Positions 8,946-56,752 of a stretch of 64,000 nucleotides of DNA are shown here, piece by piece. The DNA is taken from positions 96,001-160,000 of IMG/VR virus record IMGVR_UViG_3300032086_003797, one strand, 5' to 3'. Source of the DNA: a virus. The translations under genes were made by a program, and so were the position numbers. The notes below the pieces were generated by a model. That model searched no databases. It worked only from the letters and a program-made list of their open reading frames with translations, and was not told the origin of the DNA. Every line of letters begins with the position of its first letter. Position 1 is the stretch's first letter.

Positions 8946-8955
8946 ACTACTTATA
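8946..8955 (+). promoter_or_regulatory. Candidate phage (late) promoter motif ACTACTTATA
   Basis: Identical to 1987-1996, again directly after a terminator and 16 nt before an ATG (8972). Confidence 0.6.
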
Positions 8956-8971
8956 ACGAGAAGAGGTTTAT

Positions 8972-54600: not shown

Positions 54601-56752
54601 TCAATTCAATATGTACTCAAACCCAATAGCCTTTGGACCCCCTACCGCCACGGGCTCCGCTTTCAATAGTGGCGATGAGATCCTAGCAACCCAAGGGCAA
54701 GCCACTCATACGTTTGATGATGATATGGCGCAAGTCGTCACGGGTGATTGGGGAATGGTTAGATACGGATACCAGACTACGGCTAAGAATTTGCTAAACG
54801 CATCGCTAACAGGCAGTATGCCATCGGGAAGCGGCTGGCCTTTGCTGCATGGTAATCATGCACCTTACACGCCTCCTTACTGGTATGGTGAGTCATTTGC
54901 AAGAATATATTATTCTCCTACAGCTTCGGGCATGGTGACAATAAATGAGATCCTAGAAGAAGCACAATATGAGTATGGTAATGCAAATGACTATCTCTTT
55001 GATTTCAGATATAACGACCTGAATAAAACAGATGTCAGTGCTTCATTTGGGTCAGCTAATCTTAACTTACCCATGAATATTGTAACAGAAGGCGCTGGTG
55101 GCTTAGGATTACCGCCATATATGTGGAACCGAGCCTGGCAAAATAAGATGGAGATAAAGGCTTCGCTAACAATTAATAATAGACACCCAGGTAACATACA
55201 GCCAAACAATGCATGGGTCATTATGCCTAAGTGGGAATGTCCCATATTGGATTTCCCAGTTAGAGCCGAACCATGGGCTTCAACTAGTGGCTCTTATAAC
55301 TTTACAGCTTCTTTTGCTAAGGTTGGTCTTGGCGACCGTGGGTTATTACCTTTCACAAGTCCAGCTAACGGCAGAGAAGTGTGCCCACAACAAGGTATGT
55401 GGCACCAATACGGGGTAGTGCCAGATGCAGGAGAAGGTGTGCAAATGGTGCTCAGAGATATATCGTCAGGAGATAAAGAGAAGAGAATGAAAGCTCAGAT
55501 AATTTATCCTGGCACCCAAGGACAACCAAATGTTATTGGTGCAGCGGAAGAAAAGATGTTACCTAAAATACCAAATTCGCTGATGGATATAACAGCGTTT
55601 GGGGATAGAAAGAGGAAAGTAAGGTCGCTGGCTAAATTGGTAGGCTTTCCATCCGAAGTGGTTAATAAGCCAGTTGATTTAGGTCGAATAGCTAATAAGA
55701 AAACAGTTCATGAAGCTATAATAGCACTGCCATATTATGAGGATGCGGAAGCTAATATACAATTTATTCCAATACCCTTGAAAGACGAGTCTAACCAGGT
55801 GGTAAGTGAGTTTGGAAAGCAAACAGCCAAGCTCAGGAAATCATTATCAAAATACATATTGCCACCAGTTATAGAACAAAGAATGTCTTACTTGGTGCCA
55901 GAATCATACCCATTATCTTCTGATGGGGAAGATCTTAGATTAAGACCAGATAGTGCTGTTTACAGCAATGAGGACCCACCACTAGCAATGTATTTGTTTG
56001 AGTTTACTACGGAACTAAGTAAACAGGACTTAGCAGACTGGTGGCAGGGAATAATGCCAGAACCAAGCACTAAGTTTAACAATACAACCATGAACATATC
56101 TACAATTGATCATGCTATGCCTGGCATCGGTTTGCAAGATTTTGGTGCAAAGCCTGGAGCAGGCGGTGGTAAAGTAGACGAAAGGCTTCGTGACCTTATG
56201 GACACATCAAGGTTAGTAAGAGGCGGCTCGAAAAACGACCCAGGGTTTAGACCTGATATTAAGTGGATGGTGTTCAAAGTGAAGCAGCGTGCCCCAGCTA
56301 CTTATGAAGAGCTTATCAAGAAAAGTCTAACTGAAGCAGGTGCAAAAGTGCCAGGTGCTACAGGTCAGACAGCATATGAAAATAGACCTAAAGGTTTCAA
56401 CTGGCCGTATGATTTCTTTTCTGTGATTGAATTAGCGAAGATTAACACCACAGTTACTTTCAGACCAGATATAGACACTATCACAGTAGAAGAAAAAGAA
56501 AATACTACACCAGTCAAAAGCCTAGAGGGCGGCAAGAGAGAAGAGGCACAAGTACCACCTCCAAAGCGTGGTCGCCCTAAGAAATCACCAGCTAAAAAAG
56601 AGCCAGCCAAGAAGACAACTGCGCCAAAGAAAAATCCGCCTAAAAAGCTACCACCTAAAGCTAAATCAAAACCTGCTCGACCTAAGGATGTTGCAAAGAA
56701 AAAAGTCTTACCTAATAAATCTAACAGCAATCCAAAGAAAACACTCAAATAG
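45632..56752 (+). CDS. Giant (3706 aa) baseplate/tail protein with LamG-like domains, duplicated insertion module and Lys/Pro-rich tail
   Basis: TVEFF, WDHYAF, LDEFRFWK..R, YYKFNEG (LamG-like); YNN..YILKSKGT..S (wedge gp7-like motif); follows the gp25/gp6-like genes. Confidence 0.7.
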   Translation: MSIKKLFDAKKAGTLGGATRSTLKKLGDNVESPEQIEAALSKARAFSPKIDFSDPANFVKYGSAYRYYYDTFGYIKDYYPYDGSSREKLEFYNGLSPFEQYIFNNEYPKTTGYVTIGAIYGTDGASKQGYTTPTTAEYIQFKGGPHSGTFFATGSGLSNNLEFGGISGSTVEFFYNKTEFDSTISSPTEVILDIWNGVSSGSHDYGRLTIETDSGSADRFYVSYQSGSSGVFKASVPTAGGLTLGSGSWDHYAFVFSNSDDSTSIDLYENGTCKQSNILTGSSINLVTGSLIGRLGALRTAPGPIQASGYGTQATATDAIDMAGYQAAGDPAIKFNITIPVAAGGSNTTITIKFDISSGGSPVSAGADHITIGTAGSNDAANAALVIKAINGDTDSRITYGNGSGDGSSGIGVQGLTASAGSSSTKVTLTISKGGTSGNINSAVAHGAGTVNVVDVANFTGGAVIPAGDGKLSASLDEFRFWKEPRTAEEIGRNWYMGVNGGANTTINNSGLGIYYKFNEGITQVSTTDNVVLDYSSRLSNGAWTGYSTSGTRNTGSAIVSSSAAGFETADPIIYDTHPTYISSRDDLSSLGQQYDYTNNSSLYYTMPGWIIEQDERNGEELAKLTQIMGSYLDTLYAQVGGVLTVKDVSYPTGSVQESPNNDRLLSSLGFEAPDLFDSVGEIVRFLDKDDKRPLESSIHQIKNIIYKNIYNNLSYILKSKGTRKSFGNTLRCMGIDEKIVKISTYADNVEQTITSSYKAIPTEKKFVDFSGLRRYDDQAATIYQHYYADGYDGGSSGLISGNLDLGDNAFTLQADILFPLKPSPAEASYIEPTSPSSSLFGFHTPKITTTTSTDTAWASNTIDFGLQVYAVHATTDYSEITSPQGASRDAYFVVEDRFGNILLKTDTVREVYQNTRWVFALSARPKTYPFSQEVDGTDNDDQSYIIELYGTSFDLEDKRASFDSSKIVNFVTGSSTLASAKRIYAGAHRTDFSGSLLTRSDIRLNSCRFWNTFLTSSVVDQQAKDADAYGLVHPYRNVKTFQTSGSSVFIPAIESLALNWDFETVTGSDASGQFRVDDFSSGSNSTAYENNYQVEYAGTVQRHHSARGDFFKASDTPVRKEYFPSLRLQAPEELSSDDMITVIVEGSDDSVYGRAPRPIRHFFAVEKSMYDAISNDMLEMFASIDEFNNLIGEPVNKYRAEYKDLKKLREIFFRRVTGQRVDLDKYLDYYKWFDGALTNLVEQLFPASAPVAENTRNVVESHVLERNKYQHKYPTLEEYPFEPSGSIKGGYEQQYSWRFNHHPITMTGSVASAADAIDMDGYQAAADPSSRFTIQIPVAAGGSNTTITIKFDVSSGGSPSSYGANAITIATAGSDDASNAALVVKAINGTADSRITYGNAVSVGDGCAGIGVLGITAAEGSNNKKVTLTMTVAGTNGNITSAIAHGAGTVNLVDVNDFTGASDDIIKNDQGENCSWWANRAERNANPLNLGPNAVVGAATTLDRQNIFTSVRKKELDNQRNKFYKFGGAVEKSVAGGHNQSFNKIKANVLSFDQVSDQSTCTDEEVPAGSPLEKSRQKFRISIAGQTYKGDRMAPFSLYKALVPSEHNKQLTNTGLSGSHMTNIHEDSYYGSGFEVPMQGPFTSQHVGGLLARARTSQIEGAVNLRRENYRLTIASGTGSLARLDTEIGANSSGKGHYYRGITAKRPVNIANIAHQTASDGGGPGGSGGTIVGNFDKNYQVLQTSGRKINNLDFRDDPDAYNPSAFLSPYVGGLVETPVPSRRNTEYTLKARTTNKTIFVNRFSSPGSVETNTPAFLDFNSQEIAPNNALPFRNMLIRSVNEGHNTLSQGWGGHINTTQRSFLGLGYTIQDLNTGSFSTVVTSRHDVNRNAKPKPFLTQFDLSAFGQGQIESIGSGSIHNNNFITTPIPQADNMSWFMAYSGSDTQTYNHFFHSGGLMPESITVPSPPNLEGQSGINEGTPFSISAVAELTTIGIDARDALGSFDKFTLSGAAWVVYDYTGSSWLFSTDLSGASGPTGHESLLSAGAINNIHYVDISSVSNAKGVMTAMSSAISASGIGQVATDGTGDLNQTASITNLTIRSHNNPGVMEITSSAQAFSNIFILPDEQGGATFLSTENDLDKYTAAASAQSAMGASTDVEGVTATTGYLRSLPFDGLSDYRTNDASAIFTASNGQVQYRWGAGNNYNSWQQVRQSQLRSRESIVKSNQINVFEVAMSNGNQVETQVTLDDPFLFISAEPIKTILSVVDENSPEDGQLKFRDITVKHSYGNQRQGFINGDANVKHKYTGKGDKFLYDSLRDIRSISYSKNLAPEETGIGRIKSHEITQQIYPQARHQFLSESMLRNNYLYTRWQNDDDAINNRIENDLHVVSDLFQGDLPNPDTDDKVAGRIELIYKTHNRQVDRLVVGYTNSQNYTLEEHYQHPFDIVDGIVAKRTGSGGASTDGTASIWPLDSFLFSDSVYSGSIPVLSGVTVGSISASAQYGIHDAVRWDLNFFTNLGAGELMWFRAGAAARTGSQGYAPQGWYTRRNCQYINQMVHLDFDSLSSGVNYTQSVFGPSMGGALFMPPWTAGRDRRAVDGNNKGELIGSRGPFYNTYEDFADGVKLVGRGMGIIPEFRISEHIDHYEGTNNGDYFAANTASYSITGSAITNLNNSADDGFMKRFQNTDFIKYLSQFMVEDQDMNGLPTDLKLEAQAVQRLLPYDGFYPVIRTLQIATLFSQSYSPGLFPVAGGLGAADQTEISASGWQNILDYFYAPGIMYNSIKSGLAVDHPVFTVKEDRIPREKGTIGEVLSGSTDAQTFAEIVSDTKRAAGLRQSDHTIGPLTSGGGSRREITKFYKDIILPRRLGTAEEVQPTGSEEFLAHQIYFPDRIPFETIINPTDYLLQNKFNSNQTYDWFRNDTTSSFSYFANNKYVKGAGNFFGAIPDVFLENSRLTSIATDPNLVDPQAISVQSGTLYAMEVALRKTDQFNMYSNPIAFGPPTATGSAFNSGDEILATQGQATHTFDDDMAQVVTGDWGMVRYGYQTTAKNLLNASLTGSMPSGSGWPLLHGNHAPYTPPYWYGESFARIYYSPTASGMVTINEILEEAQYEYGNANDYLFDFRYNDLNKTDVSASFGSANLNLPMNIVTEGAGGLGLPPYMWNRAWQNKMEIKASLTINNRHPGNIQPNNAWVIMPKWECPILDFPVRAEPWASTSGSYNFTASFAKVGLGDRGLLPFTSPANGREVCPQQGMWHQYGVVPDAGEGVQMVLRDISSGDKEKRMKAQIIYPGTQGQPNVIGAAEEKMLPKIPNSLMDITAFGDRKRKVRSLAKLVGFPSEVVNKPVDLGRIANKKTVHEAIIALPYYEDAEANIQFIPIPLKDESNQVVSEFGKQTAKLRKSLSKYILPPVIEQRMSYLVPESYPLSSDGEDLRLRPDSAVYSNEDPPLAMYLFEFTTELSKQDLADWWQGIMPEPSTKFNNTTMNISTIDHAMPGIGLQDFGAKPGAGGGKVDERLRDLMDTSRLVRGGSKNDPGFRPDIKWMVFKVKQRAPATYEELIKKSLTEAGAKVPGATGQTAYENRPKGFNWPYDFFSVIELAKINTTVTFRPDIDTITVEEKENTTPVKSLEGGKREEAQVPPPKRGRPKKSPAKKEPAKKTTAPKKNPPKKLPPKAKSKPARPKDVAKKKVLPNKSNSNPKKTLK
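46571..47017 (+). repeat. 149-aa module copy 1 (ATATDAIDM...FTGG)
   Basis: Clearly homologous to 49565-50017 (IPVAAGGSNTTITIKFD, AALV.KAING..DSRITYGN, AHGAGTVN.VDV..FTG). Confidence 0.9.
49565..50017 (+). repeat. 151-aa module copy 2 (ASAADAIDM...FTGA)
   Basis: See copy 1; about 3.0 kb downstream in the same ORF. Confidence 0.9.

Follow-up and report, generated by a model that had tools for sequence, protein, structure and literature searches.

Gene content of the glycan island

The window analysed here, a stretch of 64,000 nucleotides, corresponds to bases 96001-160000 of a single 174,625-bp contig (IMGVR_UViG_3300032086_003797), the CheckV completeness of which is 95%. PHROG matches outside the locus of interest, to a T4-type prohead protease, a major head protein and a tail sheath, are those of a T4-like phage, and about 201 of the 225 open reading frames (ORFs) of the genome lie on one strand. 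In this work, we focus on an island of glycan-related genes at 11.8-31.4 kb of the window, which an earlier note had proposed to glycosylate the phage's own virion proteins at a tripeptide, [ST][GA]S. About 27 ORFs run there without gaps on the (+) strand, preceded by conserved leader genes (window positions; APS, adenosine 5'-phosphosulfate; NDP, nucleoside diphosphate; GT, glycosyltransferase):

8972-11796, + strand: conserved leader genes, namely PIN-PhoH (8972), a metallopeptidase-like protein (10273) and a PD-(D/E)XK nuclease (10966); Pfam/NCBIfam matches, syntenic in relatives
11809-13065, + strand: GT4a, a retaining GT-B glycosyltransferase with an EX7E motif; core across the clade
13044-14315, + strand: GT4b, a divergent second GT4 with EX7E; core across the clade
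14315-16743, + strand: GT2-domain protein of 547 residues (14315) and GT-D-like protein of 262 residues (15955, weak match); Pfam/NCBIfam
16706-19310, + strand: GNAT-like ORF, short DegT-type aminotransferase (17037) and two virus-type GT-like proteins; family or cluster matches
19307-24299, + strand: NDP-sugar pathway, with a KdsC-like phosphatase (19307), PfkB kinase (19821), SnoaL-like protein (20696), nucleotidyltransferase-RpiB fusion (21035), WavE-like protein (22201) and split transketolase (23171 and 23817); Pfam/NCBIfam
24307-27891, + strand: decoration enzymes, with a methyltransferase (24307), WavE-like protein (25163), sulfotransferase (25949), WavE-like protein (26565) and one protein without assignment; Pfam and cluster matches
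27888-31375, + strand: dTDP-glucose 4,6-dehydratase RmlB (27888), a 68-residue ORF, APS kinase-HAD fusion (29038), a 133-residue HIGH nucleotidyltransferase (29982) and the 2-epimerase WecB (30386); Pfam/NCBIfam

The dense carbohydrate island is real, and the figure of about 25 glycan genes given previously was slightly generous: about 20 of the 27 ORFs received a carbohydrate-related family call in Pfam and NCBIfam (sugar-nucleotide enzymes, glycosyltransferases, and methyl-, sulfo- and acetyl-transferases). The nearly gapless chain from phoH to wecB was confirmed, with distances from ORF to ORF of -50 to +19 nt; the sole apparent gap, of 293 nt at 16743-17037, is occupied by the overlapping GNAT-like ORF (16706-17146). 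Up to three WavE-like proteins are encoded (25163, its paralogue 22201, and 26565). The unassigned ORFs fall into virus-dominated clusters, giant viruses among them, and the clusters nearest to ORF 26565 are virus-only, one being commonest in Nucleocytoviricota. Features of a sulfation module are present (Sulfotransfer_2, E 3.6e-20; APS_kinase, E 1.6e-67); no ATP sulfurylase family (Sat or CysDN) was found among the island ORFs, and the 133-residue HIGH nucleotidyltransferase matches NMN-adenylyltransferase-type models only.

With regard to solubility, a 19-residue Kyte-Doolittle scan detected no membrane segment in any ORF between 8972 and 31375, and no protein with more than three such segments genome-wide. 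No match to Wzx, Wzy, ABC transporter or priming-transferase families was obtained with Pfam among the island ORFs. The earlier observation that a flippase, Wzy, an ABC exporter and a membrane priming glycosyltransferase are missing thus holds, and the membrane scan, which had been suggested as a check, indicates that all island ORFs are soluble.

Two groups of genes within the island display particular arrangements. The 68-residue ORF, the APS kinase-HAD fusion and the 133-residue HIGH nucleotidyltransferase (window 28835-30383) are translationally coupled; the latter shares 71% identity with its counterpart in the otherwise divergent relative G003, a genome that, like G006, encodes the APS kinase too. 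The GNAT-like ORF, of 146 residues, overlaps the annotated start of the DegT-type aminotransferase (window 16706-17747). This aminotransferase is only about 206-236 residues long, having kept the SFHxxK lysine and lacking the C-terminal domain, and short DegT genes beside full-length ones also occur in G001, G010 and the cultured phage immuto.

Transcription signals upstream of the chain

The region preceding the island, and a second site nearer to the window start, carry the following features:

8590-8912, + strand: phage tmRNA gene with the tag ANDDFQLAQAA, identified with ARAGORN
8912-8941, + strand: intrinsic-terminator-like hairpin (8912-8931; 8 pairs, 7 of them GC) and T-run, the only strong one of the region, directly 3' of the tmRNA gene
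8946-8955, + strand: late-promoter-like motif ACTACTTATA, a member of the ACTA[CTG]TTA[CTA] family
1987-1996, + strand: second copy of ACTACTTATA, after a hairpin and T-run, about 43 nt before an ATG at about 2039

Exactly two copies of ACTACTTATA exist in the 174.6-kb genome (window 1987 and 8946), both of them about 25-50 nt before a start codon and between a hairpin with T-run and a ribosome-binding site. The terminator and the two exact copies described in the earlier note were therefore recovered, but the gene behind the copy at 1987, taken there for a fibre gene, has no family, PHROG or PDB support for that label.

The broader ACTA[CTG]TTA[CTA] family has 19 copies on the coding strand versus 3 on the other; of these 19, 14 lie between genes, at 15-80 nt from the start codon that follows. 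The genes behind them include that of the tail sheath, one for a head-tail adaptor-like protein and, ahead of the major head protein gene, a scaffold-like one. Within the window, copies lie at 1987, 4044, 8946, 41810, 45565 and 63930. The strand bias is alike in five relatives (15:2 to 29:4), and a variant of the motif stands 25-37 nt before phoH in G000, G001, G002, G010 and G013. The island promoter is hence of the same class as those before the head and sheath genes. Because the motif family precedes head, sheath and adaptor genes, is strand-biased and has been kept before phoH in relatives, it is reasonable to consider that the phoH-to-wecB chain is probably transcribed in a late-type manner. 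The T4 late consensus TATAAATA is a different motif and hardly occurs in this genome (3 versus 9 copies). A separate sigma-70-like cassette precedes other, presumably early, genes and was not seen in the island; a regular expression for the early-type cassette, probably too strict, had no match.

The tmRNA gene lies directly upstream of the terminator and the late-type promoter of the phoH chain, and its 3' end and the hairpin are kept in the relative G001.

A conserved GT4 pair and a variable cargo

Relatives of the phage were gathered with the tail lysozyme, gp6 and GT4b as queries; 15 contigs were read whole and about a dozen in part. The two glycosyltransferases at the head of the island differ in how readily they are recognised. 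GT4a reaches 47.6 bits against Pfam Glycos_transf_1 (cut-off 26.4), and GT4b has a weak NCBIfam match only, its orthologues in relatives passing PF00534. The EX7E motif is kept in both proteins and in 20 of 20 aligned relatives, in the form EGFGLxxxE or EGYGLxxxE. In the PDB, the GT4 protein B736L of chlorovirus PBCV-1 (3oy2) ranks with the top sequence matches to GT4a.

The order PhoH, peptidase, PD-(D/E)XK nuclease, GT4a, GT4b, cargo and tail module is syntenic in more than 20 relatives, with a conserved 237-residue protein opening the tail module after the variable cargo. The length of this cargo ranges from 0 to 21 kb overall, being about 0.7-1 kb in G002, G013, G036 and G035, and 7-21 kb in the other relatives. 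Its content is mostly non-homologous between genomes. The SDR 4,6-dehydratase family alone is common to the seven fully sequenced cargos compared, and DegT occurs in five of these seven and in immuto. No single glycosyltransferase common to every cargo was found, Pfam GT2 being present in 11 of 21 genomes. The GC content is 0.373 for the variable cargo (14315-31375), 0.376-0.387 for the leader genes and 0.407 for the tail genes, with a genome mean of 0.422. The island thus consists of an old, phage-lineage-specific core and an exchangeable cassette.

The GT4b family matched at least 586 IMG/VR stretches. Among 50,697 deposited phage genomes, GT4a homologues were found only in Flavobacterium phage immuto, Microcystis phage Mel-JY01, one metagenomic phage, Rhodothermus phage RM378 and Tetrasphaera phage TJE1, and megablast of the island against the same 50,697 records gave no match. 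The cultured phages immuto and Mel-JY01 harbour the nuclease and the two GT4 genes with 4-8 kb of glycan genes, elsewhere in their genomes. One protein of the phage shares 31% identity with its Mel-JY01 counterpart, and its similarity to T4-like cyanophage proteins is local only. The stability of the core in phages of Bacteroidota and Cyanobacteria argues that the acceptor of the glycan travels with the phage.

In a distant group of relatives (G005 and L260-L278), the GT4 pair directly abuts baseplate genes and the cargo lies upstream of the nuclease (for example L269:1-8700 and L277:1-7900); the cassette has therefore moved around a fixed core. In TJE1 (L297, record 5388-10731), a nucleotidyltransferase, a nucleotide-sugar epimerase, a methyltransferase and the GT4a homologue stand just before the terminase and portal genes, and this cluster of an actinobacterial siphovirus resembles the mycobacteriophage arrangement.

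A tripeptide enriched in virion-type proteins

Downstream of the island lie the tail genes, and the proteins in which the tripeptide is concentrated are encoded there, at the window start and just past the window. For [ST][GA]S, the expected number was computed from the composition of each protein, and z was obtained by shuffling.

31380-44148, + strand: tail and baseplate module, with three small ORFs, conserved proteins of 237 and 97 residues, a lysozyme/tape-measure-like protein of 794 residues, proteins of 306 and 1799 residues, and gp25-like and gp6-like proteins; family/PHROG matches
44148-45629, + strand: all-beta baseplate protein of 493 residues with a CBM96-like domain, directly after the gp6-like gene; 10 motifs observed versus 1.2 expected
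45632-56752, + strand: virion protein of 3706 residues; 46 observed versus 10.5 expected
Window start: protein of 786 residues; 17 observed versus 4.2 expected
Just past the window: protein of 378 residues (6 observed versus 1.2 expected) and protein of 364 residues (7 observed versus 0.8 expected)

The island had been described as lying between two blocks of virion genes. The downstream block is certainly tail and baseplate, the PHROGs in the window comprising gp25-like and gp6-like wedge proteins and a lysozyme/tape-measure-like protein. The upstream block, however, has no family, PHROG, Pfam or PDB match, and a virion role for it is only plausible.

In the five virion-type proteins, [ST][GA]S is enriched 4-9 fold (z 4-11). 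The permuted tripeptides [GA]S[ST], [GA][ST]S and S[ST][GA] occur about as often as expected, and the enrichment is hence order-specific. Across the 86 sites, 66 distinct 9-mers and serine codons of both classes (TCN and AGY) are encountered, which indicates selection at the protein level and rules out a DNA-level signal. The 46 sites of the 3706-residue protein are irregularly spaced in unrelated contexts, the only bias being a hydrophobic residue at position -1 (57% versus a background of 30%); an artefact of repeat domains is ruled out on these grounds. Positions are conserved as well: in an alignment of 43 orthologues of the 493-residue protein, 17 columns carry the motif in at least eight sequences, and in up to 34 of the 43. 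Homologous proteins of immuto, Mel-JY01, G005, G009 and the L260-L278 group are enriched despite identities of 25-33%. Phages lacking GT4 genes behave differently, since no T4 protein exceeds z 2.3 and none of cyanophage Syn1 exceeds z 4.4 (the latter with only three sites), ruling out a generic property of myovirus fibres. The virion proteins rich in [ST][GA]S reported in the earlier note are thus genuine, the enrichment being order-specific, position-conserved and clade-wide. A further protein of 269 residues with z 8.8 proved irrelevant, as it is a DNA methyltransferase in which FSGSGS forms the S-adenosylmethionine-binding motif.

The AlphaFold2 model of the 493-residue protein is all-beta and multidomain (pLDDT 84.6, pTM 0.80). 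In this model, the columns with recurrent motifs, hereafter hot sites, are predicted to lie in loops preceding strands and also inside strands; residues 27-29, 81-83, 327-329 and 352-354 are among them. Residues of about 100-230 resemble a chondroitin-sulfate-binding CBM96 (PDB 8wab; TM-score 0.74 on the target; Pfam CBM96 below the cut-off), a domain to be noted beside a phage-encoded sulfation module. In RM378 (L302, record 64.8-78.5 kb), adjacent proteins are moderately enriched in the tripeptide (6 versus 0.7, 5 versus 0.8, 4 versus 0.5 and 3 versus 0.3).

Loss of cargo and loss of the tripeptide

Two relatives without cargo, G002 and G013, are sisters at 100% support and nested in the island-bearing clade, and G036 joins them. 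In these three genomes, the orthologue of the 493-residue protein contains 0, 0 and 2 motifs, respectively (expected 0.6-0.9). None of the 17 hot sites is kept in G002 and G013 (G036 stands outside that alignment), TGS being changed to TDA, TDS or EGE, SAS to YVD, and TAS to TDE or TDS. In the same lineage, the motif counts of the 378-residue orthologue and of the conserved N-terminal stretch of the giant protein are at expectation, and the 364-residue orthologue keeps three of its four hot sites. A motif poverty as deep as this was seen in no island-bearing genome.

The GT4a sequence tracks this loss. In the G002 lineage, it is changed at 8 of the 73 positions that are invariant in all other genomes, five of the eight being in the N-terminal half, whereas the other in-clade genomes show changes at 0-2 of these positions and the relative G035 at none. 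A core gene kept by motif-rich genomes and missing in the G002 lineage was also looked for, and none was convincing, 56 of 59 core-like proteins being present.

A candidate virion glycosylation system and its alternatives

Taken as a whole, the locus may represent a late-expressed, wholly cytoplasmic glycosylation system, the acceptor of which would be a phage component, most likely baseplate and fibre proteins. The GT4 pair, an ancient core always found beside the PD-(D/E)XK nuclease, would be the best candidate clade-wide for adding the first sugars to the acceptor. The 17-kb cargo, which has been exchanged among relatives much as O-antigen cassettes are, would make and decorate the rest of the glycan. 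Here, the cargo is predicted to provide a 6-deoxy-amino-sugar route, a heptose- or pentose-like NDP-sugar route, N-acetylmannosamine and further glycosyltransferases, and its putative decoration enzymes are a methyltransferase, an acetyltransferase and a module of a sulfotransferase with 3'-phosphoadenosine-5'-phosphosulfate (PAPS) supply.

That soluble island enzymes glycosylate virion proteins at the tripeptide, as first proposed, is favoured by their solubility, the promoter class, the lineage specificity, the structural position, the improbability of a DNA target and the reality of the motif, but the cargo is not required for the tripeptide. From these data, we infer that the acceptor is a virion protein and that [ST][GA]S marks its attachment sites. 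We hold the first part to be the best reading, with a likelihood a little short of even, and put forward the second more tentatively. If a virion protein is the acceptor, the conserved GT4 pair is a better priming candidate than the variable island. In its full form, the proposal is that a large aquatic clade of T4-like phages, represented by at least 586 IMG/VR loci and by cultured phages of Flavobacterium and Microcystis, possesses its own sequon-directed cytoplasmic O-glycosylation, in which the phage-specific GT4 pair would prime the [ST][GA]S serines of baseplate and fibre proteins and a hypervariable cassette, equipped here for sulfation, would diversify the glycan; we consider this possible, with considerable doubt.

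Several observations weigh against this proposal. In the G002 lineage, the GT4 pair is intact and retains EX7E, yet the motif is almost gone. Conversely, G035, a complete 180.7-kb genome with direct terminal repeats, carries the GT4 pair only, with no GT2, no SDR epimerase/dehydratase and no BLAST match to any island protein, and is nonetheless as rich in motifs as the island bearers (12 versus 2.5 expected, 32 versus 10.7, 12 versus 4.6 and 6 versus 1.3). Cargo and motif are therefore separable, a strict correlation between island and motif is ruled out, and the idea that the variable island is needed for the tripeptide has to be abandoned. The correlation across relatives that the earlier note had expected is accordingly ambiguous: one island-less lineage lost the motif, but this lineage retains the GT4 pair, and the island-less G035 retains the motif. 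The gp6 tree places G035, G024 (whose cargo measures 16 kb) and the G002 lineage together, with weak support and without resolving their order; there may have been a single loss of the cargo, followed in one branch by decay of the motif, or cargo and motif may be unrelated. The single loss lineage provides a single evolutionary contrast, which is not statistically significant, and outgroups with a GT4a homologue are mixed, RM378 being moderately enriched and TJE1 and LR756508 not. Several hot sites lie inside predicted beta-strands beside hydrophobic residues, which would fit a purely structural motif too. The absence of a flippase and a priming enzyme, used previously as an argument, is a weak one, as soluble GT2 and GT4 enzymes usually act on lipid-linked intermediates with the export machinery of the host, and are also the norm in host lipid-linked pathways. 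Lastly, a glycan on the virions of this clade is so far a prediction from the genes.

The same enzymes could instead remodel the host surface, by feeding NDP-sugars and transferase steps late in infection into an undecaprenyl-linked lipopolysaccharide (LPS), capsule or S-layer pathway in which the host itself would ensure priming, flipping and ligation; the outcome could be to mask receptors on lysing cells and debris or to block superinfection. RmlB, WecB, DegT, WavE-like and KdsC-like proteins, GT2 and GT4 are indeed typical of LPS and capsule loci, peripheral GT2 and GT4 enzymes without membrane segments are normal in such pathways, and the cassette-like hypervariability and the GC content of the cargo (0.373 versus 0.422 for the genome) resemble those of surface-polysaccharide islands. 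We nevertheless regard this explanation as a serious but unlikely one, since no priming transferase, flippase, polymerase, ligase or exporter was found in the genome, the promoter is late-type and the position structural, several ORFs belong to virus-only families, and the GT4 pair is kept both in phages that infect Bacteroidota and in phages that infect Cyanobacteria, two phyla with different surface pathways. It is rather improbable, in our view, that a real glycan is attached to another acceptor, such as some other protein of the phage or the host, an internal protein that is packaged, or a lipid or soluble product, and that the tripeptide reflects only the structure of the beta-sandwich baseplate and fibre proteins of this clade, with no relation to the glycan. 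The persistence of the motif without cargo in G035 and its disappearance in the G002 lineage while the GT4 pair stays would agree with it, and so would the hot sites, which often sit within beta-strands or at strand ends, and the preference for a hydrophobic residue at -1 (57% of sites, 30% in the background). On the other hand, the irregular spacing and unrelated contexts of the 46 sites in the giant protein do not suggest the consensus of a repeat domain, the enrichment is order-specific and absent from the fibres and baseplates of T4 and Syn1, and it survives at 25-33% identity, yet vanished in one in-clade lineage.

A third target would be the phage genome itself, with the transferases glycosylating modified bases as the T-even glucosyltransferases and other viral DNA glycosyltransferases do. 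The core GT pair always lies beside a PD-(D/E)XK nuclease; phage DNA is known to be glycosylated by GT-B enzymes, and the glycans on viral DNA can be varied (cited in PMC12619734). Nevertheless, DNA is an unlikely glycan target, and we give this explanation a very low probability: the 95%-complete genome contains neither a ThyA-family hydroxymethylase (PF00303) nor ThyX (PF02511), and the promoter is late-type, not early. Moreover, in immuto_2-6A, which has the same module, analysis of the digested DNA by liquid chromatography with ultraviolet and tandem mass spectrometry detection (LC-UV-MS/MS) revealed dA, dC, dT and fdPreQ1 in place of dG, and nothing else (PMC10516641). The TET/JBP model (PF12851) had no match in the genome, but it matched no control genome either and is uninformative.

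Comparison with known systems

The locus has the defining features neither of Wzx/Wzy or ABC polysaccharide loci nor of T-even DNA glucosylation. With O-antigen and capsule clusters and serotype-converting phage loci, it shares enzyme families, low GC content and cassette hypervariability beside a conserved flank. Unlike them, it has no Wzx, Wzy, ABC transporter, priming phosphoglycosyltransferase or ligase, and it is characterised by a late-type promoter and a structural position in a lytic T4-like phage.

To our knowledge, the only tailed phages in which self-glycosylation of the virion has been demonstrated are a few actinobacteriophages, which use two to four genes for it. Freeman et al. 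2023 (Cell Host Microbe) reportedly described virion glycosylation in mycobacteriophages, with phage-encoded GTs acting on their own structural proteins. Judging from its gene content, the present system would likewise rely on soluble phage GTs that modify structural proteins in the cytoplasm, with variable gene sets including methyltransferases. The mycobacteriophage systems reportedly comprise two to four genes and target the C-termini of capsid and tail-tube subunits in siphoviruses, whereas the T4-like myovirus studied here has a 20-kb island that brings a supply of sugar nucleotides and PAPS of its own. The candidate acceptors also differ, being baseplate and fibre proteins with a dispersed tripeptide.

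Giant viruses offer a second parallel, since the capsid glycans of chlorovirus PBCV-1 and the fibril glycans of mimivirus involve virus-encoded sugar-nucleotide synthesis and cytoplasmic GTs, as the gene content suggests here; theirs build atypical methylated and amino-sugar glycans on virion proteins. By contrast, the host is here bacterial, the virus tailed, and the acceptor a predicted one. We know of no description of a sulfation module or of a cassette-like turnover of cargo in giant-virus glycosylation.

Bacterial adhesins are O-glycosylated in the cytoplasm, again by soluble GT-B enzymes (GtfA/GtfB for serine-rich repeat proteins; TibC/AAH for the heptosylation of autotransporters), and the modified serines belong to beta-rich surface proteins that have yet to be exported or assembled. 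In the island, a GT-D-like enzyme and a route to a heptose-like NDP-sugar were recognised; the BAHT family had no match. GtfB is a dead chaperone partner, whereas GT4b keeps EX7E; the analogy with GtfA/GtfB as an active GT4 with a dead partner is ruled out, both GT4s having kept the motif and the match to GtfA (4pqg) reaching only E 0.26. The acceptors of GtfA/GtfB have long serine-rich repeats, unlike the isolated and irregularly spaced tripeptides seen here. The locus would represent a large glycan system of cassette-like, partly sulfating type in aquatic T4-like phages, with [ST][GA]S as its candidate sequon; its nearest functional precedents are the mycobacteriophage and giant-virus systems.

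If virion proteins are indeed the acceptors, self-glycosylation would be a common trait of abundant marine and freshwater myoviruses, with a large, fast-evolving and partly sulfated glycan repertoire and a candidate sequon. Virions would then carry exchangeable 'serotypes' analogous to bacterial O-antigens. This would matter for how they adsorb and which hosts they infect, for how they stick to marine gels, are grazed and decay, and for the way in which host defences recognise them. As the two cultured relatives, immuto and Mel-JY01, share the module and the motif enrichment, the question can be addressed directly at the bench.

A conserved protein upstream of the island

Upstream of the tmRNA gene, the 671-residue protein encoded at window 5634-7649 displays a weak nucleotidyltransferase-like region (PHROG 'cytidyltransferase'; PDB 1kam, E 0.06). 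Its sequence is 30-38% conserved across nearly all relatives, those lacking the island and LR756508 among them.

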